DNA of 63,845 nucleotides from Elusimicrobia bacterium ADurb.Bin231 (GTDB taxonomy: Bacteria; Elusimicrobiota; UBA8919; MWCF01), in NCBI GenBank assembly GCA_002069855.1, contig MWCF01000114.1:1-63845 (forward strand), read 5' to 3'. This document shows, piece by piece, positions 3,369 through 55,532 of the stretch. The notes beneath the pieces are model-generated. The model was not told where the DNA came from and did not search any database. It saw only the letters and a program-made list of their open reading frames with translations. The translations under genes and the position numbers were made by a program. How positions within the stretch are numbered: position 1 is the stretch's first letter; each line of letters opens with the position of its first letter.

Positions 3369-3863
3369 ATGATGAGTAAAATCAACCGGCATTTTAACGG
3401 ATATTGGGAACGCGGTTCTTGGGATTTTTGCTGGAGAATAGGTATGGAATCCTTAGTTGTAAGTTTACCTGTAGCCGTGGTGCTCGCGCTGATTTTTGGT
3501 CCTGGTAAGAGAACCTCTCTTGATATGTCATTGTCTCTGGCATTTTTTCTGATGATAATTATAGCTCCTCCCATCGAAACGCTGATATTTCAGGCATTCC
3601 CGATTTTTATTGTTCGTTCCCTAAAAGGTATTTTAAGAATACAGATTATTGCTTCTGCGGTATTGTTTTCATTAGCGCATTTTTCCGAAGGAATAACTAC
3701 AGGCATTTCCGCGGGCCTTATCGGGGGCTTATATTTTGGTTTCGCGTACGCCCGTTGGCGCGCAGTTTCTTCTTGGCGCGCATTTTGGGTAACCACAGTA
3801 TGCCATATAATTCATAACGGCATAGCTTTTATTTTTCTGGCCGCCGCCGGAGCATTGAGCTGA
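3369..3863 (+). CDS. CPBP (CAAX/Abi-type) intramembrane metalloprotease family protein
   Basis: Polytopic protein with 'FSLAHF' (FxxxH) and 'HIIHNG' (HxxxN) motifs. The N-terminal EExxxR motif is degenerate ('PIETLIF'). Confidence 0.6.
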   Translation: MMSKINRHFNGYWERGSWDFCWRIGMESLVVSLPVAVVLALIFGPGKRTSLDMSLSLAFFLMIIIAPPIETLIFQAFPIFIVRSLKGILRIQIIASAVLFSLAHFSEGITTGISAGLIGGLYFGFAYARWRAVSSWRAFWVTTVCHIIHNGIAFIFLAAAGALS

Positions 3864-3890
3864 TAATCGCGTATCATTGCGACAATATGC

Positions 3891-3918
3891 TTGACAATCT
3901 AATAATTCGTTTTATAAT
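3891..3918 (+). promoter_or_regulatory. sigma70-like promoter upstream of the phosphohexomutase gene
   Basis: TTGACA (3891-3896), 16 nt spacer, TATAAT (3913-3918). Confidence 0.45.
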
Positions 3919-4058
3919 ATTAATTTGCGGTTATTTGTAAAACTAATATTTTCATTACAGATCCTCTTGAAGTATAATCAATTATATTTTTAATATAGGG
4001 CGTGAATTTGATATAAAAGTCTGATTGTGTAAATAAATTTTTTTTGACAGGAGGTTTT

Positions 4059-5513: not shown

Positions 5514-5657
5514 TTAAAGCCGGATATCATAAAATTTTTTTTCTTTGCGACAGGCATAATAGAAGCGACAATAATGATAGTTAGACGAAAATTTGTCTAA
5601 TATTATAGCTTTTTTGTCATTTCCGCGTATATCCCATTCTCATTAAACAAAAAATTA

Positions 5658-5687
5658 TTGGAAAATTGTCATTATTTATTATATAAT
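5658..5687 (+). promoter_or_regulatory. sigma70-like promoter placed for a leaderless or near-leaderless LPS-operon transcript
   Basis: TTGGAA (5658-5663), 18 nt spacer, TATAAT (5682-5687). Only 8 nt (AACAAGTT, no SD) separate it from ATG 5696. Confidence 0.4.
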
Positions 5688-5695
5688 AACAAGTT

Positions 5696-6235
5696 ATGAA
5701 AAAGATAAAAAACTTTCGTTTGGAACTTCGCAGGGGCTATATAGAAAGGGAATTACGTAAAAACAAACAGGAGGTTCCTGCTGAAGAATTGAAAACTCGA
5801 ATTCAAGAGATCCAATCTGTCGCGCTGCCGGCCACTGTATATGCGACTTTTTCCGCGGATATTTTTAAAACCGGCGAATGTGTGAAAAAGGCGGAATATG
5901 TTTCCATAGTTGCATTGGTTTTAAACGGTATTTCCGACGAATTGCCGAAAGATGATATTTACAGAGCGATTATTAAAGACGCTTTTGATTTTTCAATAGA
6001 TCTTATAATTAAACTTATTGAGATAGAAGCGTCCAAAGAAGAATGCGATCTGTCTTCTCCTGAAGAGGTTTCTCCGGAAAATCTTTTTTCTGTAAAGGAA
6101 GTTTGCGATAATATAAAATTTTCAAAGATAGGAATTTCTTATTCGGAAGGTGTTCTGAGTCCCGCAATGACAAAATTTTTTAAAGTTTACTGGTTATCTA
6201 AAAGAAAAAGTATTAAATCGCGCGCTTCAAAATAA
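5696..6235 (+). CDS. hypothetical protein (first gene of the LPS-core operon)
   Basis: 179-codon ORF with protein-like composition. Its stop abuts the DUF374 ATG (TAA-ATG). No family recognised. Confidence 0.5.
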   Translation: MKKIKNFRLELRRGYIERELRKNKQEVPAEELKTRIQEIQSVALPATVYATFSADIFKTGECVKKAEYVSIVALVLNGISDELPKDDIYRAIIKDAFDFSIDLIIKLIEIEASKEECDLSSPEEVSPENLFSVKEVCDNIKFSKIGISYSEGVLSPAMTKFFKVYWLSKRKSIKSRASK

Positions 6236-6898
6236 ATGAAAATATTAGATAACTTTCTTGTCCGGCTGGGTTTTTTTTATATATGCGCGGTAGGTAAAAC
6301 CACAAGCGTTTGTTTTGATAGTTCCGTGGAATACAAGGCTATTAAAGAGAAAAAACTTCCTGTTATTTACGCCTGCTGGCACGGGAAACAGATCTTTCTT
6401 ATTTGGGTTCACAGAAATGAAAACGTGCACGCGTTAGTCAGCAAATCCAAAGACGGCGAATATATAGCCGCGATTATACGGAAATTGGGGTTTAACAGCG
6501 TACGCGGTTCATCGTCTCGCGGCGGATATGAGGCCCTCTCCGGAATGATTGAAATGGCAAAATCAGGGGTTTCAATAGTGTTTACTCCGGACGGGCCCAG
6601 AGGTCCTTTGCATACTGTTCATCCCGGGGTTATAATAACTGCGCAAAAAAGCGGATTGCCTGTTATACCTGTAGGATGCGCTTTGAAAAAGAGGTATGTT
6701 GTAAGAAACTGGGATGAATTTGATATTCCGTTTTTGTTTAATAAGGCTGCGGTGTGTTACGGGAAACCGTTATATGTTAATTCCGGAGATGCTATAGAAT
6801 TAAAAACCAAAGAGTTGGAAAAAGCCATAAATCTCGCGACTGCGCGCGCAGAAGGACTTTTATCAAGAAAAAAATCGGTTTGTTCGGGGGAGATCTGA
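6236..6898 (+). CDS. DUF374 domain protein (lysophospholipid-acyltransferase-like, usually Kdo-transferase associated)
   Basis: 'YACWHGKQ', 'SKSKDGEYIAAIIRKLGFNSVRGSSSRGG' and 'FTPDGPRGP' are the hallmark DUF374 motifs. Confidence 0.8.
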   Translation: MKILDNFLVRLGFFYICAVGKTTSVCFDSSVEYKAIKEKKLPVIYACWHGKQIFLIWVHRNENVHALVSKSKDGEYIAAIIRKLGFNSVRGSSSRGGYEALSGMIEMAKSGVSIVFTPDGPRGPLHTVHPGVIITAQKSGLPVIPVGCALKKRYVVRNWDEFDIPFLFNKAAVCYGKPLYVNSGDAIELKTKELEKAINLATARAEGLLSRKKSVCSGEI

Positions 6899-10039: not shown

Positions 10040-10797
10040 TTTCAATTTCAATAATAGGATATAATGAGGAAAGAAATATCGGGAGATGTCTTGAAAGCTG
10101 CTCTTGGGCGGACGAGATAGTGTTCTCTGATTGCGGCTCCATTGATAAAACAGTGGAAATAGCGTCGAAATTCGCGGACAAAATTTTGTACAGGCCGAAT
10201 AATCCCAATCTGAACGTGAACAAACAGTTTAGCATAGATAATTGTTCCGGAGATTGGATTTTATATATTGATCCCGATGAAGTTATAACTGAAGAACTCA
10301 AGAATGAAATACTGTCTGTTATCAAATCCGATAACCGTCTTGCTTCCGGATACCTTATCCCGAGGAAAAATTATTATTTTGACAAATTCTTGCGTTTCGG
10401 AGGAAAATATCCGGATTACCAACTGCGGCTTTTTAGGAAAGGTGCCGGCAGATTTCAATGCAAAAGCGTTCATGAGCGCATAGCCATATCCGGAATAATA
10501 AAAAAACTTAAATCTCCGATATCGCATTATCCTTATATAAATGTCGCGGATATGATGAATAAATCTGATTTTTATACTTTCATGAAGGCGGAAAAAATGT
10601 TCATCGAGCGGCGTTCCCCGCGTTTTATTCTTTTGCGTCCGGCATTCAAATTCATCAAAAACTATATATTAAAAATGGGATTTTTAGACGGTTATACTGG
10701 GTTGGTGACCTGTCTTATGGACGCACATAACGAATTTATCACTATGTTGAAATTAAAGGAGATGTATAATGAAAAAAAGTTCCTCTTCAAAAATTAA
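10036..10797 (+). CDS. glycosyltransferase family 2
   Basis: 'ISISIIGYNEERNIGRCLES' and 'WILYIDPDE' (DxD-type) motifs. ATGA overlap with the upstream GT4 gene. Confidence 0.8.
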   Translation: MISISIIGYNEERNIGRCLESCSWADEIVFSDCGSIDKTVEIASKFADKILYRPNNPNLNVNKQFSIDNCSGDWILYIDPDEVITEELKNEILSVIKSDNRLASGYLIPRKNYYFDKFLRFGGKYPDYQLRLFRKGAGRFQCKSVHERIAISGIIKKLKSPISHYPYINVADMMNKSDFYTFMKAEKMFIERRSPRFILLRPAFKFIKNYILKMGFLDGYTGLVTCLMDAHNEFITMLKLKEMYNEKKFLFKN

Positions 10798-11041
10798 ACG
10801 GCGTGTAAAAATTGAGGCAAAGAAAGATTTAGGCAGATTGGTTTGCGAGCTGTCGGGTGTTAATATAACTTTATGGCATGAGGAAGATAAAGCCCGCCTT
10901 CCGGATAAGGATATTGTTTTTCAAGCGAAGAGAAATATAGACAAACTGAATCAGAAACGGAATGATTTGATAGAATTAATCGATGAAACTGTGCTGGAGG
11001 CGCTTAGATATGGCAGAAACAGTAGGAAGCATAATAGATAA
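10769..11041 (+). CDS. DUF4254-like protein, N-terminal half (split or frameshifted gene)
   Basis: 'NITLWHEEDKAR...KRNIDKLNQKRNDLIELID' matches my recollection of the DUF4254 N-terminal region. The frame ends at TAA 11039-11041. Confidence 0.5.
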   Translation: MKKSSSSKIKRRVKIEAKKDLGRLVCELSGVNITLWHEEDKARLPDKDIVFQAKRNIDKLNQKRNDLIELIDETVLEALRYGRNSRKHNR

Positions 11042-11291
11042 GATAAGCATTATTGAACTTAAGATCTTTCATATGTCGGAACAAACTCAAAGGCAAGACG
11101 CCTCGTCCGCGCATATAAAGGAATCTTTAGGAAAAATAAAAATAATGGAGATTCAGAAAAAGGATCTTGCCTGCGAACTTTCTTTGTTGATGAAGAACCT
11201 TGCAGCAGGAAAAGCGAAACTGAAATTGTACAGGCAGTTTAAGATGTATAATGACCCGAAGTACAGGGTTCGCGCCGGTAAAAAAAGATAA
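11010..11291 (+). CDS. DUF4254-like protein, C-terminal half (split or frameshifted gene)
   Basis: 'AETVGSIIDKISIIELKIFHM' carries the LKI motif, and 'YRQFKMYND' is present. ATG 11010 lies 10 nt after GGAGG (10995-10999). The ORF track starts it at 10983. Confidence 0.5.
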   Translation: MAETVGSIIDKISIIELKIFHMSEQTQRQDASSAHIKESLGKIKIMEIQKKDLACELSLLMKNLAAGKAKLKLYRQFKMYNDPKYRVRAGKKR

Positions 11292-32045: not shown

Positions 32046-33575
32046 ATGCTTGCTAAAGTTTATTCCGCCCTTGTTTACGGTATTCACGGCCATATAGTTA
32101 CTGTAGAAGTCGATGTCTCAAGCGGGTTCCCTTCTTTTTCCATTGTAGGCCTTCCTGACACAGCGATAAAAGAATCCAGAGACAGAGTTGTGGCAGCCAT
32201 AAAGAATTCCGGATTTGATTTCCCAACCAAAAAGGTTACAGTTAATCTTGCTCCTGCGGGACTGAAAAAAGAAGGAGCGATTTTCGACCTCCCGATTGCC
32301 GTTGGGATTTTGCTTGCCACAGAACAGATAAAACGCCTGACGAATTCCAAATATTGTCTTGTCGGAGAACTTTCTCTCGACGGCTCGATAAAAAAGGTCA
32401 AAGGCGTGTTGCCTATATCAATTAAATTATGCAAAGAACACTTTGACGGGATAATAGTTCCGGAAGAGAATAAACAGGAAGCCGCTATAGTTGACAGGTT
32501 GAATGTGTATCCAGCCGCAGATTTGAAATTCGCTATACAAAGGTTTACAGACGAAGTTTCCTGTGAACCTTTCAAGATAGATTTGATGAAATTATTTACG
32601 AATTCCTCAAATTATGATATGGATTTCAAAGATGTGAAGGGCCAGGCATTTGTAAAAAGAGCAGTTGAAATCGCCTGCGCTGGTTCGCACAACATACTTC
32701 TTATAGGATCCCCAGGCAGCGGCAAAACCATGCTGGCAAAAAGAATATCCACAGTTTTGCCGAATATGTCTTTAGACGAGGCAATAGAAACAACAAAGAT
32801 ACATTCCATAGCCGGATTAACTTCTTCAGATACCGCTTTAATAGCAACAAGGCCTTTTAGAAATCCGCATCATACTATTTCTGATGTCGCTCTTATCGGC
32901 GGCGGAGCGTATCCCCGTCCCGGAGAGGTGTCTCTTTCTCATAACGGCGTATTATTTCTCGACGAACTTCCCGAATTCCATAGAAACGTTCTTGAGGTTT
33001 TAAGGCAGCCTCTTGAAGACGGAGTTGTTACTATTTCTCGCGCAGCTTTATCTCTTACATATCCCGCAAGATTTATGCTTGTGGCTGCTATGAACCCGTG
33101 TCCGTGCGGATATTACGGGCATCCCACACGGGAGTGCAGTTGTACTCCTTTTGAAATTCAAAAATATATTTCCAAAATTTCAGGTCCTCTTATGGACAGG
33201 ATAGATTTGCATATAAATGTTCCTGCTGTTAAATTCGAGGAACTTACTTCAGGCGTGTCTCCAGAATCTTCTTTAGACATTAGAAAAAGGGTTTCCCGTG
33301 CCCGTGAGATTCAAAAAAACAGATTCTGCGGAGAAAAACATATTTATGCCAACGCGCATATGGGTTCCAGGCACATAAAAAAATACTGCGATATAAACCC
33401 CGCCGGCAAAATGCTGTTAAAACACGCGATGGAAAAACTGGGGTTTTCGGCACGCGCTCACGACAGAATTCTTAAAGTCGCGCGCACTATCGCGGATATT
33501 TCCGGCGAAGGGGATATTCAAACAAGTCATATCGCCGAAGCGATACAGTATCGTTCTTTAGACCGGAATATTTAA
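32046..33575 (+). CDS. YifB/ComM family Mg-chelatase-like AAA+ ATPase
   Basis: Lon-protease-like N-terminal domain, '[14 protein letters not shown]', '[11 protein letters not shown]' and '[15 protein letters not shown]'. Confidence 0.9.
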
Positions 33576-45176: not shown

Positions 45177-45205
45177 TTGACAAAAACTTTAAGGTTTTGT
45201 ATAAT
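45177..45205 (+). promoter_or_regulatory. consensus sigma70 promoter upstream of rplM-rpsI
   Basis: TTGACA (45177-45182), 17 nt spacer, TATAAT (45200-45205), immediately after the asd stop. Confidence 0.5.
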
Positions 45206-46116: not shown

Positions 46117-47874
46117 ATGAAACAAAGAAAAGTAAGTTACTTTTTAGGGGCATTGGCAGTCATTGGTGTATTATATCTGAATTTTTTGCAGGATGCTTTC
46201 TTTGTATTGGAAAACAAGTCATACGATGTGCGGCTCAAACTGCGCGGAGTAAAAAAAAATTCGGGAATAAAAGATATAATAATTGTTTCCATTGACGAGG
46301 ACAGTTTAGATCATCTTGGCAGGTGGCCATGGGACCGTTCCATTCATGCTAAACTTGTCGATATACTTACCAAAGACGGCGCAAAAGTTATACTTTTCGA
46401 TATTTTGTTTCTTGAAAGAAGCAATCCGAACAGCGATAATAAATTAATTCTTGCAACCCAAAAATCAGGAAGAGTAATAAATGAAACGCTTTTTGAGTTT
46501 GAGGGTACTTCTGTTATAAAACAAAAAGCCCCTTTGCCTGGATTAGTGAAGCATTCATTAATGCTTGGCGCTCCAAATGTGTTTCCTGAATTGGATGGTG
46601 TTCTGCGTAGGGTTAAGCCCACATTTTTTTATGAGAACAAGTTTTATCCGCATGTTTCTCTTGCTGTGGCTTCCGCATATTTGAATAAGCCGTGGGAGGA
46701 AATGCTCGGCAACATTCCGGTTAATGATCTTGGCGAGATGATTGTTAATTATTGCGGGCCTTTCGGCACTTTCGAATATAAGCCCTATTATAAAATTCTT
46801 GCCGGAGATTTTGAAAAAAAATATTTTCGAGATAAAATAGTTTTGGTGGGTTACGCAGCTGCAGGACTTGGCGACAGACATGTTACCCCGCTTTCACATA
46901 TAACGCCAGGAATAGAAACCATAGCCAACAACATATACACAATCGTGCATTCCGATTACATATATTATTCTAAATGGTATGTAAGATTATTTTCTATATT
47001 AATCGTAGGCATTGCGATGCTCTTTTTCCTTCCTCGTCTTAACGCGTTGAAATCCACCTTGTTTGCCGCGAGTCTTCTTATTATATGGACCGGTGCGGCA
47101 TATTATTTCTTTGTTACCAGACAGGTATGGGTTGAATATGTTCCCACAACAACTCTAATAATTGTTTCTTACATTTCAATAACTTCATGGAGATTTGTTA
47201 CCGAAGAAAAAGAGAAACGTTGGCTTAAAAAAGCATTTGGCCAGTATTTGTCTCCTGCTGTTATCAATGAAATAATCAAAAATCCGCAGGCATTGTCTCT
47301 CGGAGGCAAAAGGCAGGAATTGACTGTTCTTTTTTCCGACATAAGAGGATTTACAACCATTTCAGAAGCATCTACTCCGGAAAACGTTGTTTCTCTTTTA
47401 AATGAATATCTTACAAAAATGACTGAAGTGGTTTTCCGTCAGGAAGGCACTTTGGACAAATTTATAGGGGATGCTGTAATGGCTTTTTGGAATGCCCCTA
47501 TTCCTCAGTCCGATCATGCTAAAAAAGCGGTTTTTTGCGCTATTGAAATGATGGAAGAATTGGAAAAATTAAAAAAGAAATGGACCAGTGAAGGCAAAGT
47601 GGTTATTGACATAGGAATCGGCGTTAATACCGGAGAAATGGTTGTCGGAAATCTCGGTTCCGTGGAAAGAATGGACTATACAGTTATAGGAGATAATGTC
47701 AATCTTGCGTCGCGGCTTGAAGGTTTGAATAAGGAATATAAAACTCATATCATTATTTCGGAATTCACATATAATTATGTCAAGGATTTTGTCGTTGCCA
47801 GATCCCTCGGTGCGGCAAAGGTTAAGGGCAAGGCAAAAGCAGTTGAAATCTATGCAGTGGAAGGAAGGAAATAA
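46117..47874 (+). CDS. CHASE2 sensor domain - class III adenylate/guanylate cyclase
   Basis: 'IVSIDEDSLDHLGRWPWDRSIHAKLVD' is CHASE2. TM segments follow. 'LTVLFSDIRGFT', 'KFIGDAVMAFWNAP', 'IGVNTGEMVVGNLGS..R.DYTVIGDNVNLASRLE' form the cyclase core. Confidence 0.85.
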   Translation: MKQRKVSYFLGALAVIGVLYLNFLQDAFFVLENKSYDVRLKLRGVKKNSGIKDIIIVSIDEDSLDHLGRWPWDRSIHAKLVDILTKDGAKVILFDILFLERSNPNSDNKLILATQKSGRVINETLFEFEGTSVIKQKAPLPGLVKHSLMLGAPNVFPELDGVLRRVKPTFFYENKFYPHVSLAVASAYLNKPWEEMLGNIPVNDLGEMIVNYCGPFGTFEYKPYYKILAGDFEKKYFRDKIVLVGYAAAGLGDRHVTPLSHITPGIETIANNIYTIVHSDYIYYSKWYVRLFSILIVGIAMLFFLPRLNALKSTLFAASLLIIWTGAAYYFFVTRQVWVEYVPTTTLIIVSYISITSWRFVTEEKEKRWLKKAFGQYLSPAVINEIIKNPQALSLGGKRQELTVLFSDIRGFTTISEASTPENVVSLLNEYLTKMTEVVFRQEGTLDKFIGDAVMAFWNAPIPQSDHAKKAVFCAIEMMEELEKLKKKWTSEGKVVIDIGIGVNTGEMVVGNLGSVERMDYTVIGDNVNLASRLEGLNKEYKTHIIISEFTYNYVKDFVVARSLGAAKVKGKAKAVEIYAVEGRK

Positions 47875-48561
47875 GTGTATTTTTTTTGGAATCTGTTGCT
47901 GGCTCATTTGCTTGCCGATTTTACTTTTCAAACCGACAGAATTGCCAAATGGAAAAGGGAAAATATTTCCGGAGTCTTTTTTCATGTGCTGATTTTTCTG
48001 TTTTTCGCTGTTGTCGTCAATTACCAATATCTTCCGCGCAGAGATTTTGCGTTGGCTTTATTATTGCTGGGAATAACACACGTGGTAGAAGACCAATGGA
48101 GAGTTATAAGCGTTACCAAATACCATTCTCACGATAATATATTTCTTTTCTTATATGACCAGTTGGTTCACATACTGCTTATTTTTATACTTGCGCCTGC
48201 TGATCCTCCATATGTTACCACGGAAAAATGGATTTATATTCTGCTGATCGGGATCATAGTAACTCATTTTGCGATGATTTTTATATATTTTCTTAAAAAA
48301 CTGTTTGATGAAAAAACATTATTTATAAGTAAAGAAAAATATCACGGGATAGTTGAACGGCTATTGATTTTCGGATGTTTTATCATACCAGGTAACTGGT
48401 TTTGGTTAGGTATTGTTACCATTGTTATGCTTGTAATAGTCGAACGCAGATTTATACGAAGATTTAAAAAAGACCTTGATTTTTCCGTGTTCAATATAGT
48501 CGCCTCAAATATTATTGCGGTACCTTGCGCAATTCTTGCAAGGCAAATCTGGCTGATGTAA
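47875..48561 (+). CDS. DUF3307 family membrane protein
   Basis: 'LLAHLLADFTFQTD' N-terminal signature. GTG start directly abuts the cyclase stop (TAA-GTG). Confidence 0.65.
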   Translation: MYFFWNLLLAHLLADFTFQTDRIAKWKRENISGVFFHVLIFLFFAVVVNYQYLPRRDFALALLLLGITHVVEDQWRVISVTKYHSHDNIFLFLYDQLVHILLIFILAPADPPYVTTEKWIYILLIGIIVTHFAMIFIYFLKKLFDEKTLFISKEKYHGIVERLLIFGCFIIPGNWFWLGIVTIVMLVIVERRFIRRFKKDLDFSVFNIVASNIIAVPCAILARQIWLM

Positions 48562-48796
48562 TATAAGGCGTATTTGATTTTCAGTTGATGTATTCTTTAT
48601 TCCGGCGGTTTCTTCCCCTTTGTTTCCAAAAAAAATAATATTCTTTTTTTTTATTCGTTTTTTTTACAATCGAAATTATATTTAAATCATTTATAAGCCA
48701 TTTTCCGTGTCAAATCAGGATATGTTTCGCAGGCATTATATCTCTTTTTTATTTTTTGCGGGCATATTTTCTTTGCGTGTTTTAATGAGTTTATGA

Positions 48797-48825
48797 TTGA
48801 CAACACAGGTAAAACTGTTTATAAT
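48797..48825 (+). promoter_or_regulatory. consensus sigma70 promoter of the pilin-like operon
   Basis: TTGACA (48797-48802), 17 nt spacer, TATAAT (48820-48825), 74 nt before ATG 48900. Confidence 0.5.
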
Positions 48826-48899
48826 TAATTATACAAAGACATAATTCATTTTGTTCTTAATAAAGGGAAAAAAAGCCATTCTTAATCCAACAATAATCT

Positions 48900-50153
48900 A
48901 TGAAAAAAAACCAAAGCGGATCAGCTATCACTATATTAATGATGATGTTTATTGTTATAAGTATTATTAGTTTTACCGGATACCAATTGATAACAACTGC
49001 TTACAAAGATGTAAAATACCAGCAAAACTGGGTTTTACAGGCGGGGAATGCTGCCCGCGCCGGTCTTGTTGACGCTATTTCATGGTTCAGACGCCAACCG
49101 AATCAACCTGTCAAAAGCGGTATTCCTCCTATTACATATTCATGGGTTGACGGTGCATTTGATCCTCATTTTTCAACGGATCCCGTTCATAGCGATACAA
49201 TAGATCAAAGCATAGGTATAGTGAAAGAGTATCAGTTGTCTGAAGACAATCTGATTTGGTGCAGATATGAGGTTAAAAGACAATCAGATACAGCGATATT
49301 CGCTTATGATCCTGAATCTGTTCACGATATTTCCGGAGAACGGCTGCACACTGGCGATCCAGAAGAGGGTAACGGTTCAGGAATAGTCTGGTATATATCC
49401 AGTACCGGTTATATATTCAGGAAACGCAGCGCTTTGTCGCCCTTTGATATTTCGCCTAATGAAATTGTCGCAAAAACACGGTGTTCTACGGAAATAAGAA
49501 GAATAAAACTTCAACCGCCAGGACAATGCGCGTACATAGTGGATAATGGAGGCACGAGCAGCAACAGAAAGGTAAGAATATACGCAAATGGTCGCATCTC
49601 AGGGTCCGGATATGTCGGTTGCGGAAGAAGAAGCGGTTCAGCTCCGCGAATCGAAACAGGCGCGTCTGTTACAGGCAATCCCGCGACTATTACCGGACTT
49701 AACAGTCCTACTGTGGAGTATGTTTTTGGAGTAACATCTGAAGAGTTGAAAACATTGTCGGACTATGCAGTGGATACTACCGCGACATTGCCTTTGTCTC
49801 TTCCTGATATGTCTCTTATTTATGTCAACGGGGATGCTGTTTTTGATTCTTCCAAACCTTTAAAAGCAAGCGGGATATTGTTCGTAAACGGCGATCTCAC
49901 GATAAGTAACGGCTCAAATAGTTATTACAGTGGGTTAATTTATGTTACAGGGAAAGCATACATATATCCTCCGTGTCTTATAAGCGGGTGTATTATTGCT
50001 TTTAACGGATTGACTCTTTCGCAAACAGGCGCCACAGATATAGCTGAGATCAATTATGATGTCGGGATATTAAATTCCGTGAAACAGCAGATATGTCAAT
50101 ACAGAGAAAATAAATCTTTATATCGTATTTATTCTGGTATTCCGGGAATGTGA
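48900..50153 (+). CDS. PilX_N-like pilus/pseudopilus assembly protein (no prepilin cleavage motif)
   Basis: 'SGSAITILMMMFIVISIISFTG...AGNAARAGLVDAISW' resembles the PilX N-terminal domain. The C-terminus has beta-helix-like 'IYVNGDAVF..SGILFVNGDLTISNG..GLIYVTGKAYI' repeats. Confidence 0.55.
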   Translation: MKKNQSGSAITILMMMFIVISIISFTGYQLITTAYKDVKYQQNWVLQAGNAARAGLVDAISWFRRQPNQPVKSGIPPITYSWVDGAFDPHFSTDPVHSDTIDQSIGIVKEYQLSEDNLIWCRYEVKRQSDTAIFAYDPESVHDISGERLHTGDPEEGNGSGIVWYISSTGYIFRKRSALSPFDISPNEIVAKTRCSTEIRRIKLQPPGQCAYIVDNGGTSSNRKVRIYANGRISGSGYVGCGRRSGSAPRIETGASVTGNPATITGLNSPTVEYVFGVTSEELKTLSDYAVDTTATLPLSLPDMSLIYVNGDAVFDSSKPLKASGILFVNGDLTISNGSNSYYSGLIYVTGKAYIYPPCLISGCIIAFNGLTLSQTGATDIAEINYDVGILNSVKQQICQYRENKSLYRIYSGIPGM

Positions 50154-50155
50154 TT

Positions 50156-53100
50156 ATGAAAACAAACAACAGGGGATTTACTTTAATAGAGGTAATAATA
50201 ACTGTAACCATATTGGCATTGCTGGTTATTCCGATTATTTCAATACATTCATATATGAGCCGTCATTCCGTTGTTATAAAAGAAAAAATCTTTACTACTC
50301 AAAAGGCACTGCAGATGATGGAAGAACTTCGCGGCTTGGTTGCAGGCACCGAAAAGAAACAAATAGATGTTCTTGACGATTATGACGATGGCGTGGTATT
50401 TAAAAATAATTTAACTACTGATAGAAATGTTGTTTCACCTGACGCTTCGCCAAGCGACAATGTTTTTACAGACGGCAAGTGGAAATATGTGAGAAGGATA
50501 TCGGTGATAAAGATGCCTGAAGAGCCATTTTCCAGAAAGGTTTATATAAGGGTGTATAAAAATACAGGGCAGAACCCGGAAAAACTTGCGGAAACTGTAA
50601 GCGTTCTCAAAACTATAGTTATGACTTATTCTCCGATACAGGTGGCGGATTTGTTCATTATAGCGATAGAGAATGTTCCCGGTTGGTGGTCGTCTTTATC
50701 TTTGATGCGGCCGATTATGGAAAGTATTCTGCAGGATCTTCAGACAAGATGTCCGAATCTTGAGATACGCGTCCATTGGATAACCCGGCTCGCGTTCGGA
50801 AGGGATTCGCAATATGTTCCGTATATAAACGATTCGTCTTATACCAATGATGTTTCTATGCCCTATGTGTATTTTTATCCCGGACGAATGAGGAAATCCG
50901 ACGGTGCTGATTTCCTTTTTTACGATTCCGATCTTTTTCAAAGCAGAATCAATCTGGATGATTCAATCAAGGAGAATAGCAGTTATCCGCTGGCGGATAT
51001 GTACAATCATGCAGTAAGATATCCGGACGAAGAACGGCTCTATAACGAGGCAGTGGCAGCTGCGAATTCCAAAGGTATGTCTCCGCCGGAAATAAGTTTG
51101 AGAATGCTTATTGAAAAGATGAATTCCTCGTCTCAGGTTTATAACAATATAATACTTATGAATCTTCACGGAGAATTGCTGCCTTTGCCTCCTATGAGAA
51201 ATTATTCTGACGCCGCAAAAGATCCTGAGAATTATCCATACGTAAGGGTTGTTTCTCATCCGGAAAGAATTCAGTATAATTCCGGCGATGCTGTTAAACT
51301 TCGCGTATATCCCTATGTTACGGAACCGTCTCTTTTTTCTTCTACTTCTGCTTTGCAGACTTTGTCGGTTTATTTACCTAATGATTATATTCTTCCGGGT
51401 CAAACTGTAGTTGAAAAGATAAATGGTAATGAAAACCATGATTATGAAAGAGTTACCGTGCTTGCCGGAACTGATACATATAATATTTCTTATCCTGCTG
51501 CAGGTGGAACTTTATTTACATTTTATGATAATCCTTTAAGACACGCTCCTAACGGGAATAAAGGTCTTCCGTTGGATAAATGGTTGTATGGTATGGAGTA
51601 TATTCCGTGCCCGGTTCATCCTGCTGGAACTCCGGAATTTACTTACGACCTGACCAATAATAATGCGAACAATCCAAAAAACACTGCCAGGTGGATAATA
51701 ACTTTTACCGCTGGAATTTTAGCGGACGGTATTCATACTATAGAGACAAGAATAGGAGAGGATATAACTGCTGGCGCTTTATCCAATAAACCGAGCAATC
51801 TTTCGCGCACATATACATGGGTGGGTGTTACTCCTCCGGTTACTGAGCAGTATCAGTTTATGGGTGATCCGCGGCATATGCCTTATAAAGATGTAAAGAA
51901 AACAGATCCGCCGAACCCTAAGGAACAGTATAATTGGTATTTTACTGATATAAATGAAGGAGATTATAAGGGATTTACTGAGGCGAGCAACGGTTGGGGC
52001 GATGACGGGGTTGATATTGATATACCAAGATTTTATCAAATGATTCGGCAGGGCTTGATGAATACTCAGGCAGTCTGGTCAGCTATGAATGGCTTTAGTT
52101 TTTATTATTACGGAATAGGCGGAGAATTCGGCTCAGATATGGAGCCTCTGCCTTACGGCATACCGTTTCGCAAGATGCCATGGAGCGCTACAGGAGAAAC
52201 GAGTTTTTTATATGTGGACGAAATACTTCCCTATTGCAACGGCAGTCCGAATGTGACTTACAATAAAGTAGTAGCGCGCACAGATAATTCCTGGTACGCG
52301 AAATACTGGCTTGGCGAATTGTATCCTGATTATGATTATTCCGTATGGAAAAGCACTGGCAATCTGCCAACCGGCGTTGGAAGATATTACAGAACAAATC
52401 ACGATACATTTACTTCATTCGGAAGAAACAGGACCAGAAGAACAGGTTCAAAGGGATGCTCCTCTTTCTTTAATGGAGGTTATTCCAGTAACAGGTGTTT
52501 TAAACATATATCTTCCGACTCCAGTTTCGGTGCCATAACTTCTCTCGGCAATAATATTGCTTCGATGTTTAATTTTCCTCTCTTATCGTCGATAAGTGCG
52601 CCCCGTCCGTTTTCATTAAATTATTCGGGAGATTATCCCACGGAATGGAACGAATCCGAATATAGTGCTCTTAGAACCGTATTGTCTATACCTCAAATAG
52701 ATTTGAATGAAAGAATATTTTACGATTCCAATTACAGTCCCTTTTCTTACGATGCGTGTTCAACTGTAAAAATGACAAAAGATACAGACACCGCGTATAT
52801 AGCGGTATCCGGCTTGGCTACACAAGCTAATTTCGGCACTGCGCAAATAGGCAAACTTGTGTTGGTAACATTGTTAAGGAGTTTTATGGACGGAGGGCTT
52901 TATTCCGGACAGGACAAAATATCTCAAATACCGTATGTGGATCTAAAAAAGCCGTTGATATCCGATACCTTTGATAATCCGTTAACGATTAATATTAATT
53001 GGGATGTCGTATGGAAGCGTTGGGATCTGGAAAAATATACTGAAGAGTATCCGGATGATTATGTTGAAACCACCCCGTTGGTGTATGCTGTTAAGTATTC

Positions 53101-53317
53101 CAACGATAACGGGAAGTCATGGTATTATTGTTTGGATGACACCCCTACATCAGCGGGAAAGAAAGATTATCCCATGTATACAACTACTTCTACGGATTAT
53201 TATTGGACCGTATCCTCAAAGCCTGCCGGCACTTATCTTATAAGAATAGAGTGCTACAGACGGGATATAGATCTCCATTACGGTTATGATCAGATTCAGG
53301 TCAATATAAGAAAATGA
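50156..53317 (+). CDS. giant (~1,053 aa) prepilin-type N-terminal cleavage/methylation domain protein
   Basis: 'MKTNNRG|FTLIEVIITVTILALLVIPII' is a class III signal peptide with Glu5. GTG 50150 is the alternative start and overlaps the upstream stop. Y/N/W/P-rich body. Asp-box-like 'YSNDNGKSW' near the C-terminus. Confidence 0.7.
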   Translation: MKTNNRGFTLIEVIITVTILALLVIPIISIHSYMSRHSVVIKEKIFTTQKALQMMEELRGLVAGTEKKQIDVLDDYDDGVVFKNNLTTDRNVVSPDASPSDNVFTDGKWKYVRRISVIKMPEEPFSRKVYIRVYKNTGQNPEKLAETVSVLKTIVMTYSPIQVADLFIIAIENVPGWWSSLSLMRPIMESILQDLQTRCPNLEIRVHWITRLAFGRDSQYVPYINDSSYTNDVSMPYVYFYPGRMRKSDGADFLFYDSDLFQSRINLDDSIKENSSYPLADMYNHAVRYPDEERLYNEAVAAANSKGMSPPEISLRMLIEKMNSSSQVYNNIILMNLHGELLPLPPMRNYSDAAKDPENYPYVRVVSHPERIQYNSGDAVKLRVYPYVTEPSLFSSTSALQTLSVYLPNDYILPGQTVVEKINGNENHDYERVTVLAGTDTYNISYPAAGGTLFTFYDNPLRHAPNGNKGLPLDKWLYGMEYIPCPVHPAGTPEFTYDLTNNNANNPKNTARWIITFTAGILADGIHTIETRIGEDITAGALSNKPSNLSRTYTWVGVTPPVTEQYQFMGDPRHMPYKDVKKTDPPNPKEQYNWYFTDINEGDYKGFTEASNGWGDDGVDIDIPRFYQMIRQGLMNTQAVWSAMNGFSFYYYGIGGEFGSDMEPLPYGIPFRKMPWSATGETSFLYVDEILPYCNGSPNVTYNKVVARTDNSWYAKYWLGELYPDYDYSVWKSTGNLPTGVGRYYRTNHDTFTSFGRNRTRRTGSKGCSSFFNGGYSSNRCFKHISSDSSFGAITSLGNNIASMFNFPLLSSISAPRPFSLNYSGDYPTEWNESEYSALRTVLSIPQIDLNERIFYDSNYSPFSYDACSTVKMTKDTDTAYIAVSGLATQANFGTAQIGKLVLVTLLRSFMDGGLYSGQDKISQIPYVDLKKPLISDTFDNPLTININWDVVWKRWDLEKYTEEYPDDYVETTPLVYAVKYSNDNGKSWYYCLDDTPTSAGKKDYPMYTTTSTDYYWTVSSKPAGTYLIRIECYRRDIDLHYGYDQIQVNIRK

Positions 53318-53322
53318 TAAAT

Positions 53323-54327
53323 ATGAAAAAAAGAACAAATGGTTTTACGCTTGTGGAATTGATAGTTGCCATTACTATAATGGCTATAATAACGCCTGTT
53401 ATGTCTATGGTTTTATTCTATGTGATTAAAGGTTTTTCTTCTTACGAGGCTATAAACAGCATAAATAAAAAAAATCAGGAAATGTTAAATAGAATATATA
53501 TGCGTATGAGCGTGAACAAAAGAATTTTTCAGAACACATCATCTGACAATCAATTCCTATCAAGGATTCAATTGACTAATTGTCCTTCGGTATTGGCTAA
53601 CAGCAAATTGGCAAAGATTGAGGAAGGCGGTTCCCTGTCTCCGGATACTACTACATTTATCGCGGCCAGCGCAGGGAACAGCTTGTTTTTTGGCAGTTAT
53701 GAGTTTGCATCTACTTTTAACAATGTCGCGGATTCAGACAGTTCCACTCATACAGTCAAAATCGATTTGTACAGATTTTATTATTATTACATCACAGCCG
53801 ACAATCCGCACAGCATTACTTCGAGACCGAGTTACAGGGGAATAGAGTGGAAGAGCATTCCTTATGTGGATTACAGGGAACTAATAAATATAACAAATTC
53901 AACCTTAAGGAGCAATACCGTAAAAAAAATATATGCTGCGGGCATTAGATACGGGTGGGATCCAGCTGCTACAGTCGCGTCCGGATCCTTTTATAGCTTG
54001 AATTCCAACGGCAATATAACATTGCAATCCGCTCATAATATCCAAAAAGACAAATATATTGATATAACAAAAATAGCTACAGGTATTATGGGCAGCGCTT
54101 ACAGATACGGAGTTTCTCCGAATACTGCGGGCTGGCCTCAAGCTCCGCTAAAAATACCTGAGTACGGAATAACAAATGGAAGTTTTCCCGGCGGATTTGA
54201 AACTGTTATTGTCGGTTCGTCGCGCGGCAGAAAAGTTCTTGTAAGATCCTCTATAGTTGCTCAGATAATGACCAGTTATGTTACAAGTCAATTGACAATA
54301 GTTTGTTCCGCAAGAGATGTCTGGTGA
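53323..54327 (+). CDS. prepilin-type N-terminal cleavage/methylation domain protein (PilW/GspK-sized minor pseudopilin)
   Basis: 'MKKRTNG|FTLVELIVAITIMAIITPVM'. The alternative ATG 53314 overlaps the upstream TGA (ATGA). Confidence 0.7.
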   Translation: MKKRTNGFTLVELIVAITIMAIITPVMSMVLFYVIKGFSSYEAINSINKKNQEMLNRIYMRMSVNKRIFQNTSSDNQFLSRIQLTNCPSVLANSKLAKIEEGGSLSPDTTTFIAASAGNSLFFGSYEFASTFNNVADSDSSTHTVKIDLYRFYYYYITADNPHSITSRPSYRGIEWKSIPYVDYRELINITNSTLRSNTVKKIYAAGIRYGWDPAATVASGSFYSLNSNGNITLQSAHNIQKDKYIDITKIATGIMGSAYRYGVSPNTAGWPQAPLKIPEYGITNGSFPGGFETVIVGSSRGRKVLVRSSIVAQIMTSYVTSQLTIVCSARDVW

Positions 54328-54412
54328 TATTTCGTAAATATGAAATCTGCGGAGATATTTTTCCGGCCGCGGGTTTTACTGCTTGGCCTTTTCTCTTCTT
54401 TTTTAAATTAAA

Positions 54413-54441
54413 TTGACAAGATTGTGATAATTTTGTATTAT
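54413..54441 (+). promoter_or_regulatory. sigma70-like promoter upstream of tRNA-Arg
   Basis: TTGACA (54413-54418), 17 nt spacer, TATTAT (54436-54441), about 95 nt before the tRNA 5' end. Confidence 0.4.
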
Positions 54442-54535: not shown

Positions 54536-54609
54536 GGGCTCGTAGCTCAACTGGATAGAGCGAACGGCTACGAACCGTTAGGTTAGGGGTTCAACTCCCC
54601 TCGAGCCCT
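54536..54609 (+). tRNA. tRNA-Arg (anticodon ACG), no encoded CCA
   Basis: Folded by hand. Acceptor GGGCTCG/CGAGCCC. D arm GCTC-AACTGGATA-GAGC. Anticodon arm AACGG-CTACGAA-CCGTT. T arm AGGGG-TTCAACT-CCCCT. Followed by a T-run. Confidence 0.9.
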
Positions 54610-54772: not shown

Positions 54773-55051
54773 ATGATATTTTTAATAACTTTATTGCTTA
54801 TAGCAGTAATTGCGATTATCGTTTCTCTTCAAAACGCGGAACCTGTAACAGTTGCTTTGCTTGCGTGGGAATTTGACGGTTCTCTTGCTCTGGTGATTGT
54901 TGTTGCGCTTCTTTTCGGATTTTTGTCTTGTTTTGTCGTAACCTTACCAGCGATTATTAAAAAAAACATTGAAATTTCCAGATATAAAAAGAAAGTTAAA
55001 GAGGCAGAAAATCAATCTGTCCGTTCAAATGCGGAAAATAAATCTGCGTAA
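54773..55051 (+). CDS. LapA-domain (DUF1049) small inner-membrane protein
   Basis: Two TM helices. 'IVSLQNAEPVTVALLAWEFDGSLALVIVVALLFGFL' is typical of the LapA_dom family. Confidence 0.65.
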   Translation: MIFLITLLLIAVIAIIVSLQNAEPVTVALLAWEFDGSLALVIVVALLFGFLSCFVVTLPAIIKKNIEISRYKKKVKEAENQSVRSNAENKSA

Positions 55052-55058
55052 TTCAGAT

Positions 55059-55532
55059 GTGGCCGATGAATTTTTTATGAATGCAGCTCTTCTGGAAGCG
55101 CGCAAAGCAGAGCTTAAAGGTGAAGTGCCCGTAGGATGTGTAGTCGTTTCAGAGGGCAGGATAATATCAAGAGGACATAATCTGTCGATATCTCTTAAAG
55201 ATCCGACGGCGCACGCAGAAATAATAGCAATAAAAAAAGCGGCAAAAGCTCTTAAAAATTACCGCTTGACAAATTGTTCCATATATGTTACAATTGAGCC
55301 GTGTCCGATGTGTGCCGGAGCTATTGTATGGGCGCGAATAAAAAAACTTTGTTTCGGCGCTTCAGATTCCAGAACCGGCTCTTGTGGAAGTATTTTGGAT
55401 ATAGTTCAAAACAATAGTTTTAATCACAATGTAGAAGTTAAAAAAGGCGTGCTTCGCTGCGAGAGCAAAAATATTATAACAAATTTTTTTAAAATAAAGA
55501 GAACTTTGAATTCCTCTCGACAGAAAAAGTAG
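55059..55532 (+). CDS. tadA: tRNA adenosine(34) deaminase
   Basis: 'EVPVGCVVV', 'HAEIIAI', 'VTIEPCPMCAGAI' (H-A-E / PCxxC zinc site). Start is GTG 55059 or ATG 55077; the ORF track starts at 54969, inside the lapA-like gene. Confidence 0.85.
   Translation: MADEFFMNAALLEARKAELKGEVPVGCVVVSEGRIISRGHNLSISLKDPTAHAEIIAIKKAAKALKNYRLTNCSIYVTIEPCPMCAGAIVWARIKKLCFGASDSRTGSCGSILDIVQNNSFNHNVEVKKGVLRCESKNIITNFFKIKRTLNSSRQKK

Follow-up and report, generated by a model that had tools for sequence, protein, structure and literature searches.

Cap pilins of the GspK and PilX type are devoid of the glutamate at position 5 (Glu5), and the Verru_Chthon cassette of poorly studied phyla consists of four genes specifying prepilin-type proteins, which stand alone and occur in multiple copies. 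Pilins with large grafted modules are well known and are referred to as modular pilins (PMC8179133). ComZ has been proposed to cap its fibre jointly with a neighbouring minor pilin, and its own domains were related by the authors to pseudopilin-type and ice-binding-type structures (PMC6561018). The PilIJK licensing trimer (PMC13533445) is a precedent for the three genes described here, P1, P2, and P3, which form an operon on a 63,845-nt stretch of DNA from an Elusimicrobia bacterium; this whole stretch is referred to as the window. A preliminary description had regarded this operon as the best candidate for an undescribed surface system. Since modular pilins are already known, that view was overstated. 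More likely, the three proteins are accessory to a conventional filament, as its tip or as a priming set.

Operon structure and boundaries

The three genes are tightly coupled and encode, on the forward strand, proteins of 417 aa (P1; 48900-50153), 1053 aa (P2; 50156-53317), and 337 aa (P3; 53314-54327), sizes on which the NCBI annotation of the contig agrees. The stop codon of P1 (TGA, 50151-50153) is located 2 nt ahead of the ATG of P2 at 50156, to which a GTG at 50150 is an alternative, and the stop codon of P2 (TGA, 53315-53317) is overlapped by the ATG of P3 at 53314. If P3 were started from the alternative ATG at 53323, it would comprise 334 aa.

P1 is separated from the stop codon of a DUF3307 gene (48561) by an AT-rich intergenic spacer of 338 nt (48562-48899), whose GC content is about 0.29-0.32 compared to 0.395 (39.5%) for the window. 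Searching this spacer against Rfam did not yield any family, even at E<=1. It contains a sequence on the forward strand matching the sigma-70-type consensus at 12/12 positions (48797-48825), TTGACA (48797-48802) and TATAAT (48820-48825) being separated by 17 nt, and it is positioned 74 nt upstream of the P1 start. The exact 29-nt pattern occurs twice in the window, while 0.03 occurrences are expected from shuffled sequences; the second copy is found ahead of rplM-rpsI. In one relative, L019, a 12/12 site is likewise present 5' of P1. Judged by sequence, the element ahead of P1 would act as the promoter of the operon.

Downstream of P3, RNA folding of the region 54328-54412 (-20.1 kcal/mol, z = -2.45) revealed a terminator-like hairpin (54365-54388) on the forward strand, followed by a U-rich tract (54389-54404). 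This last hairpin directly precedes UUUUCUCUUCUUUUUU. Although it (54365-54404) was not flagged by a simple terminator scan, transcription may terminate here. The next gene in 3' direction specifies tRNA-Arg(ACG) (54536-54609). Promoter, gene coupling, spacer, and tRNA boundary are all as given in the preliminary description.

Features of the three proteins

P2 (MKTNNRG/FTLIE) and P3 (MINMKKRTNG/FTLVE; predicted cleavage sites are marked by a slash) match PF07963 (N_methyl) with 29.4 and 30.1 bits, respectively, above the gathering score of 21.2, and TIGR02532 with 24.4 and 24.3 bits, above the cut-off of 16.3. Gly-1 is present in 97 sequences of the P2 family and in every aligned member of the P3 family, Glu+5 in 97/97 and 55/55, and 52 of 58 P3 family members show the N_methyl match. 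The leaders, with a median length of 9 residues in the P2 family and 13 in the P3 family, are short, like those of T4a and T2SS pilins. These signatures support P2 and P3 as genuine prepilins, and the proposal that the giant component is itself a prepilin holds. P3 appears conventional, composed of an N-terminal helix and a head of ~300 residues. Its matches to solved pilins are limited to the helix, which also matches P2 (hhalign prob 96%). P3 evolves faster than P1 and P2.

Around its predicted cleavage site, P1 reads QSG/SAITIL. Its family, 93 homologues nearly all named 'hypothetical', contains Gly-1 in 78/78 aligned sequences, mostly S-A-L at +1 to +3, and at +5 always a hydrophobic residue and in no case Glu. 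Searches of Pfam and NCBIfam with P1 itself gave no match and reached no pilin family threshold, and PilX_N was matched by only 6 of 86 relatives, all below threshold. A PilX_N-like N-terminus, as suggested previously, is therefore weakly supported, while the suggested beta-helix-like C-terminus is present in the AF2 model (pLDDT 93.8). In this model, a long helix (residues 6-65) is predicted to be followed by four long strands forming a sheet, a beta-solenoid of short regular strands (residues ~210-385, 49527-50054 on the forward strand; pLDDT above 94), and C-terminal strands. Residues 309-378 gave weak profile matches to left-handed beta-helix and ice-binding proteins. The top fold match in the PDB is ComZ (6qvi), but it is weak (E 1.1e-3, prob 0.47, TM about 0.17), and ice-binding beta-solenoids follow among the Foldseek matches (E 0.02-0.1). 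Because these are the structures tied to the domains of ComZ, they support P1 as a cap, and its sequence supports behaviour like a Glu5-less cap pilin. The ComZ resemblance noted earlier is thus a property of the 417-aa P1, to be read as a weak fold match, and not of the giant P2.

ComZ binds DNA and has been proposed to cap a competence pilus (PMC6561018). Accordingly, the trio could be the tip of a DNA-uptake pilus with P1 as DNA receptor partnered by P2 and P3, an arrangement like that of ComZ-PilA2-PilA3 in Thermus, and competence genes along with pilins are reported from Endomicrobium (PMC8809381). A ComM-type gene is located in the window (32046-33575), but ComM is widespread and the gene is 15 kb away from the operon. 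Considering also the weakness of the ComZ match, the lack of a counterpart to most of P2 in Thermus, and the lectin-type rather than nucleic-acid-binding modules of P2 relatives, a DNA-uptake tip is very unlikely. It is in any case a sub-case of the cap or priming explanation with a specific ligand.

P2 is the best conserved protein of the trio. The AF2 model (pLDDT 92.8, pTM 0.86) predicts a helix (residues 10-64) and strands (residues 111-169) within a pilin-like module of ~170 residues, joined to a conserved body of ~880 residues (~100 kDa). In the models of both P1 and P2, pilin-like structure appears to extend past the N-terminal helix into beta-strands, as would be expected of pilins. 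No convincing structural homologue of P2 was detected in the PDB or among viral structures, and this includes its ~880-residue body; PilB, a modular pilin from S. sanguinis, was matched weakly in fold (7ba2, E 1.1e-3). Across 106 sequences of the family, 42 columns are invariant, many of them Asp, His, Arg, Asn, and Glu, a pattern that fits an enzyme, or a machine part under structural constraint, better than an adhesin. Among the best 150 of 436 cluster representatives, complete proteins align from the N-terminal pilin positions of the profile, and the few starting late are short and look truncated.

The least conserved block of P2 is a hypervariable patch at residues ~400-450 (51353-51505, forward strand), with 12-26% identity among orthologues compared to about 55% elsewhere. 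Insertions of 116-141 residues after residue 399 are found in relatives carrying PF07691 (PA14), and single other long relatives contain a Laminin_G_3 module, a sub-threshold F5/8 type C match, or a Kelch motif. The hypervariable block and the PA14-carrying inserts suggest a binding role; P2 presumably is a conserved scaffold with a patch that accepts lectin modules, putatively for binding.

Distribution and genomic context of the trio

The trio is found as one block in Elusimicrobia, Acidobacteriota, Planctomycetota, and FCPU426, in at least 233 species genomes and at least 436 clusters at 50% identity, and is not an orphan peculiar to one genome. The order P1-P2-P3 is kept in every locus inspected. 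By crude ORF calling, P1 was detected directly 5' of P2 in 66 of 89 P2 copies and a match to the P3 profile directly 3' in 62 of 88; most of the missing neighbours are ORF-calling failures at high GC or contig ends. The cassette is duplicated in some genomes, and the order P1-P2-P1-P2-P3 in locus L088 indicates joint duplication of P1 and P2. Searches of Pfam, NCBIfam, structures, and the literature did not retrieve any model, structure, or publication for the trio, which is an unnamed but widely conserved family over several phyla. The neighbouring genes are almost always unrelated, and none of their families is kept from phylum to phylum. The trio stands alone in relatives as well, outside T4P and T2SS loci from which it might simply have been relocated.

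Domains of PilB/T, PilC, PilD, PilM-Q, or secretins were not present among the annotated window genes, a scan that covered the majority of ORFs with at least 180 aa but few of the small ones, and a six-frame pattern search of the whole window for class III signal peptides detected only P2 and P3. The absence of nearby machinery, as described before, was thus seen in the genes scanned, but it is less unusual than first claimed, because genes for T4aP are normally dispersed among separate loci (PMC6668835). In two loci, L015 and L086, PilB-type ATPases (MshEN+T2SSE) are encoded 5-6.5 kb from the trio. PilD is reported from Endomicrobium genomes in addition to the pilins and competence genes mentioned above, and a Tad pilus locus from Elusimicrobium minutum (PMC8809381). 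Pilus machinery therefore exists in lineages carrying the trio.

The constant autonomy of the trio, with only about 10 extra pilin-like ORFs across 79 loci and no major pilin gene consistently close, would also suit a static envelope complex without filament, for which class III signal peptides serve only export and anchoring, as in the 'bindosome' of archaea, whose sugar-binding proteins carry signals of the pilin type. P2 far exceeds most filament subunits in size (PMC8179133), and its body is strongly conserved, which is also seen in binding proteins or enzymes. However, given the scattering of T4aP genes, a missing neighbouring major pilin is uninformative. Moreover, Glu+5, needed for contacts between filament subunits, is kept by every P2 and P3 sequence aligned; the contrast with P1, which lacks it, is difficult to account for unless the helices stack in a defined order, and the ComZ/GspK-type cap architecture of P1 implies a fibre end. 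A static complex is accordingly quite unlikely.

The trio may instead cap a short T2SS-like pseudopilus that stays in the periplasm, with no display on a pilus outside the cell. The weak N-terminal NCBIfam matches of P2 and P3 are mostly to GspI, GspJ, GspG, ComGE, ComGF, and HpsC, relatives are named 'type II secretion system protein' or 'PulG' in several database sources, three proteins correspond to the number of GspI-J-K, and the strong conservation of P2 suits a machine part. Polysaccharide genes are found beside some loci, that of L002 being flanked by Wzy_C and glycosyltransferase genes, and LPS genes are present elsewhere in the window. Yet the T2SS and competence matches are confined to the N-terminal helix and far under the family cut-offs, and GspC, D, E, F, L, and M are absent beside the trio in all loci. 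The hypervariable patch with its PA14-containing inserts suggests varied external ligands, and a ComZ-like solenoid cap has a precedent in an external competence pilus (PMC6561018). The pseudopilus is rather unlikely, as is the corresponding role as piston or gate for protein or polysaccharide export, like cyanobacterial Hps pseudopilins or GspIJK.

A putative cap or priming set and known systems

The trio probably represents a self-sufficient set of minor pilins that caps or primes a type IV filament, and most likely forms the tip of a filament whose machinery is encoded elsewhere, which makes it a variant of a known design and not a novel kind of surface system. The filament would be either a pilus of the T4a type or a pseudopilus of the T2SS type, with major pilin, prepilin peptidase, ATPase, platform, and secretin encoded at other sites of the genome. 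P1, P2, and P3 would enter the inner membrane via their hydrophobic N-terminal helices, and a PilD-type peptidase would cleave after Gly-1, which P1 also possesses despite lacking Glu5, and methylate position +1 of P2 and P3. The helices may then bundle as in GspI-J-K, with P1 on top because a leading subunit requires no partner for Glu5, and the solenoid of P1 may point along the axis of the fibre, an orientation also proposed for ComZ. P2 would supply the conserved body, its patch facing outward to bind a ligand, most plausibly a glycan or other polymer. Polymerisation of major pilins below the trio would push the complex outward, and duplicated cassettes or P1-P2 pairs could provide alternative tips. 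Several points count against a cap: canonical tip sets have four minor pilins and the trio only three, the invariant residues of P2 suit an enzyme or machine part better, P1 reaches no pilin family threshold and matches ComZ weakly, and the body of P2 must cross the outer-membrane channel.

P2 and P3 show weak N-terminal matches to proteins C and D of the Verru_Chthon cassette (TIGR02596, TIGR02598, TIGR02599, TIGR02600). Membership was rejected, as scores of 10-15 bits compare to cut-offs of 70-256 bits and involve the helix only; four genes and different taxa also distinguish this cassette from the trio.

The ComZ-PilA2 tip of Thermus thermophilus resembles P1 in the hydrophobic N-terminal helix, the pseudopilin-like sheet, and the large ice-binding-type beta-solenoid followed by terminal strands, the latter two being predicted for P1. 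Homology at the sequence level is absent, however, and ComZ comprises 554 aa. The Thermus locus specifies the small partners PilA1-3 but no pilin of ~1,050 aa.

GspI-GspJ-GspK and PilI/J/K (PilV/W/X) likewise consist of three co-encoded pilin-like subunits with assembly priming and a tip position, the role proposed for the trio. GspK and PilX share with P1 the missing Glu5 and an extra domain, and they cap the fibre as suggested for P1, while the other two subunits keep Glu5 like P2 and P3. No trio protein reaches the thresholds of GspI, GspJ, GspK, PilV, or PilX_N, all matches covering the N-terminal helix only. In contrast to these complexes, the K-like gene comes first and all three heads are far larger; a fourth pilin of the GspH/FimU type is absent from the trio.

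Modular pilins such as PilB and PilC of S. sanguinis, CofB of ETEC, TcpB of V. cholerae, and CpaL/TadG of Caulobacter combine a pilin module with a bulky graft, as P2 does, and PA14 and Laminin_G_3 occur both in the survey of these proteins and in P2 relatives (PMC8179133). P2 differs by a body free of database signatures yet highly conserved across phyla, by two dedicated partner genes that are always present, and by its size, the most extreme modular pilin in the 2021 InterPro survey having 860 residues (PMC8179133).

PilY1/PilC and MshQ are comparable to P2 in length (~1,000-1,200 residues), in being encoded with minor pilins, and in presentation at the tip, which is proposed for P2; they also combine a conserved part with a variable one taking up modules such as vWA or lectins (PMC13533445, PMC8179133). 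The PilY1 beta-propeller was not detected in P2 with Pfam. PilY1/PilC are not pilins and attach by a C-terminal beta-strand donated to PilX/PilK (PMC13533445), whereas P2 is a prepilin with Glu5 and should be able to stack in the helix bundle itself.

Organization and surroundings of the operon

The three genes follow each other closely on the forward strand. P1 (48900-50153) specifies 417 aa, P2 (50156-53317) 1053 aa, and P3 (53314-54327) 337 aa, and the NCBI gene calls on the corresponding contig (GCA_022707085.1, JAKJBH010000006.1) are identical. Both junctions are tight: the stop codon of P1 (TGA, 50151-50153) has the ATG of P2 (50156) 2 nt further on, and that of P2 (TGA, 53315-53317) is overlapped by the ATG of P3 (53314). 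Upstream of P1, an AT-rich spacer of 338 nt (48562-48899, ~30% GC) holds the promoter, with TTGACA at 48797-48802 and TATAAT at 48820-48825 separated by 17 nt. A hairpin obtained by RNA folding (54365-54388) and a U-rich tract follow P3. Next on the same strand is the gene for tRNA-Arg(ACG) (54536-54609), whose own promoter-like site, matching at 11 of 12 positions (54413-54441, forward strand), is placed between hairpin and U-rich tract on one side and the tRNA on the other. In promoter, open reading frames, coupled junctions, spacer and tRNA-Arg boundary, the region is organized as stated in the preliminary description.

The exact 29-nt pattern TTGACA-17-TATAAT was detected twice in the 63,845 nt of the window, compared to 0.03 occurrences expected from shuffled sequences. 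The second copy (45177-45205, forward strand) is located 69 nt 5' of rplM (45274), which is followed by rpsI. Since the pattern is so rare in the window and its second copy precedes genes for ribosomal proteins, the sequence at 48797-48825 is a credible candidate for a strong promoter. The pilin operon and the ribosomal protein operon rplM-rpsI thus have this consensus promoter in common, and no third exact copy is present in the 64 kb. The possibility that the 338-nt spacer contains a riboswitch or a different RNA element was rejected: the Rfam search gave no match there and, in the whole window, no RNA family besides tRNA, and the 5' UTR starting from the promoter spans only 74 nt. The GC content of the trio, ~0.40, equals the average of the window; therefore, there is no sign of recent acquisition, and horizontal transfer of that kind was dismissed.

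Annotation of the window combined precomputed Pfam matches on the NCBI contig with our own scans. The NCBI contig (51,637 bp) stops ~156 nt past P3, at ~54483 and ahead of the tRNA gene; the window extends 9 kb further and so comes from a longer assembly of the same organism. The Pfam picture of the annotated genes is solely one of housekeeping functions. They include LPS, glycosyltransferase and LpxK genes, and those for envelope proteins of the OmpA, TonB, TolB and YfiO type, UvrD, GatA, TrmD, RNase HII, a ComM-type ATPase, the ribosomal proteins L13 and S9, a CHASE2-cyclase, DUF3307, TadA, an AddA-like helicase-nuclease and the CCA enzyme. Pfam domains of PilB/T, PilC, PilD, PilM-Q or secretins are not found among the annotated window genes, and a six-frame search revealed class III signal peptides in P2 and P3 and in no other product. 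The absence of assembly machinery from the 64 kb, as noted before, was thereby borne out for the genes annotated. The location, which had been regarded as unusual, is not surprising in itself, since T4aP genes are as a rule dispersed over several separate loci (PMC6668835).

Directly 5' of the trio, a CHASE2 protein with a guanylate/adenylate-cyclase domain and a DUF3307 membrane protein are encoded (46117-48561, forward strand). In an Elusimicrobiales relative (L004; 4401-6080, 18244-19520), a cyclase gene is located 4 kb upstream of the trio, and genes for a cNMP-binding protein and a pilin of 154 aa (N_methyl, ComP_DUS) 4-6 kb downstream. These arrangements may indicate a cyclic-nucleotide regulatory link, or just synteny. 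Within ~400 nt after tRNA-Arg(ACG), a TadA-type deaminase is encoded (54969-55532, forward strand; MafB19-deam and dCMP_cyt_deam_1); TadA is the enzyme editing A34 of this tRNA. At 10769-11291 (forward strand), two neighboring short open reading frames (90 and 93 aa) share a slight overlap, and each of them matches DUF4254; they could be parts of one gene that is split or frameshifted, or two genes in tandem.

Prepilin signatures of P2 and P3 and the candidate cap P1

Prepilins are recognized by a short basic leader ending in Gly at -1, a hydrophobic residue at +1, Glu at +5 and about 20 hydrophobic residues. P2 and P3, whose leaders had suggested prepilins, both exceeded the curated cut-offs of the methylation domain models PF07963 and TIGR02532. 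Gly-1 and Glu+5 are present in all 97 P2 and all 55 P3 sequences aligning at this site (alignments of 106 and 58 sequences, respectively), and the leaders are short in both families. The canonical motif is therefore found in P2 and P3, but not in P1, which lacks Glu5 and any model match. For P3, a word-indexed search detected only 13 homologues, the others being too divergent, and the family was rebuilt from neighboring open reading frames; the similarity of P3 to solved pilins and to P2 is confined to the N-terminal helix.

The remaining NCBIfam matches of P2 and P3 covered only this helix and were far under the cut-offs (GspI/J/G/H, ComGC-GF, PilV, HpsB/C, tapirin, Verru_Chthon C/D). The GspI/GspJ, PilV and ComG minor pilin families reached at best 12-22 bits with cut-offs of 44-80, over residues ~4-67 only, and the Verru_Chthon cassette (TIGR02596/TIGR02599) 10-15 bits with cut-offs of 70-256, again in the N-terminal helix only. 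Membership in the Hps pseudopilin, tapirin and GspI/J/K families was likewise rejected on score. A Tad-type system was rejected, since both the GFTLxE motif and the shortness of the leaders point to the T4a/T2SS type; the TadE/G model was touched by a single P1 relative (E = 0.08).

P1 itself matched no Pfam or NCBIfam model at E<=1, including those of PilX_N (PF14341) and GspK. Of the PilX_N-like N-terminus that had been ascribed to it, only weak traces were detected among relatives, with sub-threshold matches to PilX_N in 6 of 86 and to DUF7305 in 8 of 86. Throughout the P1 family the Gly is invariant, with mostly S-A-L and then a hydrophobic residue after it; P1 itself keeps Gly-1 and the hydrophobic stretch. 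In the 78 of 86 sequences that align at Gly-1, position +5 is occupied by I, F, L, V, T or Y, but never by E. Lack of Glu5 characterizes the cap pilins GspK and PilX.

The AF2 model of P1 (pLDDT 93.8) consists of a helix (6-65), long strands (106-201), a beta-solenoid (~210-385), a further helix and terminal strands (401-412); the solenoid is placed between the sheet strands and the two terminal ones. In Foldseek searches of the PDB, ComZ (6qvi) was the best match, although a weak one (E 1.1e-3, prob 0.47, TM ~0.17), followed by a series of ice-binding beta-solenoids. ComZ has been described as a GspK-like pilin domain with a solenoid superposing on the ice-binding protein FfIBP (PMC6561018). 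Because the best matches were ComZ and then ice-binding solenoids, the P1 model appears to recover both halves of this description, at weak scores.

By analogy with established systems, the three proteins probably form a cap or priming complex of a type IV filament that is autonomous. P1 would be topmost, P2 and P3 would be stacked below it via their Glu5-bearing helices, and major pilins would polymerize beneath the trio by machinery encoded elsewhere; all steps past translation are what we infer. The analogues are the GspI-J-K trimer, in which GspK has no Glu5 and caps the tip, the PilI/J/K licensing complex (PMC13533445) and ComZ-PilA2 (PMC6561018). PilD, pilins and Tad loci have been described in other Elusimicrobia (PMC8809381). 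This occurrence of PilD, and PilB-type ATPases encoded close to the trio in two relatives, are indirect evidence that the proteins may be cleaved and N-methylated by a PilD/GspO peptidase and built into a filament. An alternative, the tip of a T2SS-like periplasmic pseudopilus, is considered unlikely. A specifically DNA-binding competence tip, a sub-case of the cap or priming complex, appears very unlikely.

Distribution of the trio

More than 554 relatives of P2 are present in a database clustered at 90%, and 436 representatives were obtained at E <= 1e-30 among 1.84 billion clusters of 50% identity. In the best 150 of these 436, the match of complete proteins, which have lengths of 1027-1662 aa, begins at the N-terminal pilin part of the profile; a few representatives with a later start are short and seem to be truncated. 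Scanning one genome per GTDB species revealed 233 stretches encoding a P2 relative. The best 80 of them belong to Elusimicrobia, Acidobacteriota (mostly Thermoanaerobaculia), candidate division FCPU426, Planctomycetota and a few others. One relative (L037) is contained in the nearly complete genome CP011806, which is labelled 'Acidobacteria bacterium Mor1'.

The preliminary description had allowed for the trio being routinely embedded in standard T4P/T2SS loci of relatives. Instead, the three genes form a conserved unit. In all gene-called contexts, on contigs of 2.2 Mb, 346 kb, 3.5 Mb and 301 kb, P2 has a P1 relative (400-440 aa) on one side and a prepilin (320-360 aa) on the other, with unrelated flanks. 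Crude calling of open reading frames placed P1 directly upstream of P2 in 66 of 89 copies and a match to the P3 profile directly downstream in 62 of 88; misses occurred mostly at contig ends or in high-GC loci, where the longest-ORF rule fails and the counts are approximate. Some genomes harbor two or three copies, which are separate in several MAGs. Two complete trios are arranged in tandem in L041 (2323-14310), and in L088 (3682-14239) the order is P1-P2-P1-P2-P3, between groES/EL and dnaE; here, P1 and P2 are duplicated as a pair with one P3 for both.

Clustering of ~2,600 flanking open reading frames from 79 loci revealed clade-specific synteny only (DedA-like proteins, response regulators, ABC ATPases), and a functionally linked neighbor was rejected. 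Neither a family conserved across phyla nor recurrent T4P/T2SS machinery was detected in this set. PilB-type ATPases are encoded 5-6.5 kb from the trio in two loci, with unrelated genes in between, and about ten extra pilin-like open reading frames occur in the 79 loci. A static, pilin-anchored envelope complex, as another reading of the trio, is judged quite unlikely. Further pilin genes were seen in L009 (Elusimicrobia RIFOXYB2_FULL_48_7, 56% identity), first-ranked in the scan of genome contigs: a prepilin of 860 aa and a pilin of 162 aa are encoded 2-5 kb upstream of the trio (3751-6859), without an equivalent in the window. A protein of ~213 aa is encoded 2-6 kb from the trio in L058 (15638-16279, reverse strand) and five other Acidobacteriota loci; by eye, its N-terminus resembles MshEN or the T2SSE N-terminal domain, and it has no ATPase domain. 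Family members are named in databases 'hypothetical', 'prepilin-type ... domain-containing', or by generic T2SS or PilV terms, and our literature search found no published account of the P1-P2-P3 family.

The body of P2 and comparison with known systems

The AF2 model of P2 (pLDDT 92.8, pTM 0.86) shows a helix (10-64), four strands (111-169), and alpha/beta and beta-sandwich domains up to residue 1052. In the models of both P1 and P2, the succession of a long helix and strands fits the pilin fold, in which an N-terminal alpha-helix is packed on an antiparallel beta-sheet. P2 thus consists of N_methyl, a pilin-like module of ~170 residues and a body of ~880 residues, which corresponds to the definition of a modular pilin, a prepilin motif and pilin module at the N-terminus joined to a further module that has no part in pilus biogenesis (PMC8179133). 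For the body, no convincing relative was detected with a profile against PDB sequences, where P2 matched only through the N-terminal pilin helix, or with Foldseek against the PDB and viral models. Foldseek yielded weak matches to Ig-like, macroglobulin, cohesin and FN3-type pieces (TM <0.12 on the query). PilB of S. sanguinis, a modular pilin, was likewise matched weakly (7ba2, E 1.1e-3).

Conservation of P2 exceeds that of P3 and equals or exceeds that of P1: identities of P2 to the orthologues of L002 and L004 are ~56% and 48%, the corresponding values being 54% and 47% in P1 and 41% and 39% in P3. Residues ~400-450 of P2 are hypervariable, orthologues being 12-26% identical here vs ~55% elsewhere. 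At this block, relatives carrying PA14 (PF07691) have inserts of 116-141 residues; one long relative contains Laminin_G_3, one a sub-threshold F5/8 type C match and one a Kelch motif. A scaffold with a single variable patch accepting lectin modules is as expected of a ligand-binding head with changeable specificity. The strong conservation of the remaining P2 sequence could also reflect an enzymatic or mechanical role.

Among the 42 invariant columns of P2, many hold Asp, His, Arg, Asn, Glu, Trp or Tyr. Asp, His, Arg, Asn and Glu account for many of these residues, and the body might be catalytic or substrate-capturing rather than a passive adhesin, and the trio a 'working head' extended and reeled in by a retractile type IV filament. 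We regard this as improbable; if true, it would be a filament function not previously described and common to Elusimicrobia, Acidobacteriota, Planctomycetota and FCPU426. Motifs of the caspase/gingipain, metallophosphatase and vWA-MIDAS types do not fit by eye, the Cys of the LYGMEYIPC motif is replaced by S or A among relatives, and, for want of evidence, P2 was provisionally taken neither for an enzyme nor for a representative of any known fold family. The C-terminal beta-sandwich contains SNDNGKSW (residues 982-989, 53099-53122), which resembles an Asp-box/BNR motif (SxDxGxTW) and in which S982, G986 and W989 are kept across the family; it is probably behind marginal sialidase and GH61 sequence matches of P2.

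Minor-pilin tip complexes set what a type IV filament does, and to our knowledge descriptions of them are largely limited to a few cultured Proteobacteria, Firmicutes and Thermus. The trio likely represents a widely conserved, uncharacterized tip cassette of poorly studied phyla, with P1 and P2 confidently modelled. It would be a compact three-gene version, strongly conserved from phylum to phylum and carried by at least 233 genomes (species level) and 436 clusters (50% identity), mostly of uncultivated lineages, and a defined target for studies of their attachment to particles, polymers, DNA or partner cells. Unusual are an adhesin-sized component that is itself a pilin, a cap with a weak structural match to ComZ, and a predicted specificity region formed by a single hypervariable, module-accepting patch.

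The trio proteins do not belong to the GspI/J/K, PilX_N, PilY1 or Verru_Chthon families, as far as these were tested. P2 and P3 fall under the generic definition of prepilins, and P2 under that of modular pilins. The 'undescribed surface system' initially proposed is therefore not categorically new. ComZ is the closest known entity for P1, and GspIJK and PilVWX are closest for the logic of the trio. In size and role, PilY1/PilC and MshQ come closest. PilY1/PilC has a C-terminal beta-propeller domain and is not itself a pilin, whereas in P2 the propeller is absent (Pfam at E<=1 and fold searches) and a class III signal peptide is present. P2 itself is closest to the modular pilins PilB, PilC, CofB and CpaL. 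In a 2021 survey of modular pilins, the authors of which note that modules without signatures are missed, the most extreme multi-domain case had 860 residues (PMC8179133). P2, the body of which has no database signature, is a case such surveys miss, and it widens the size range and architecture of modular pilins.
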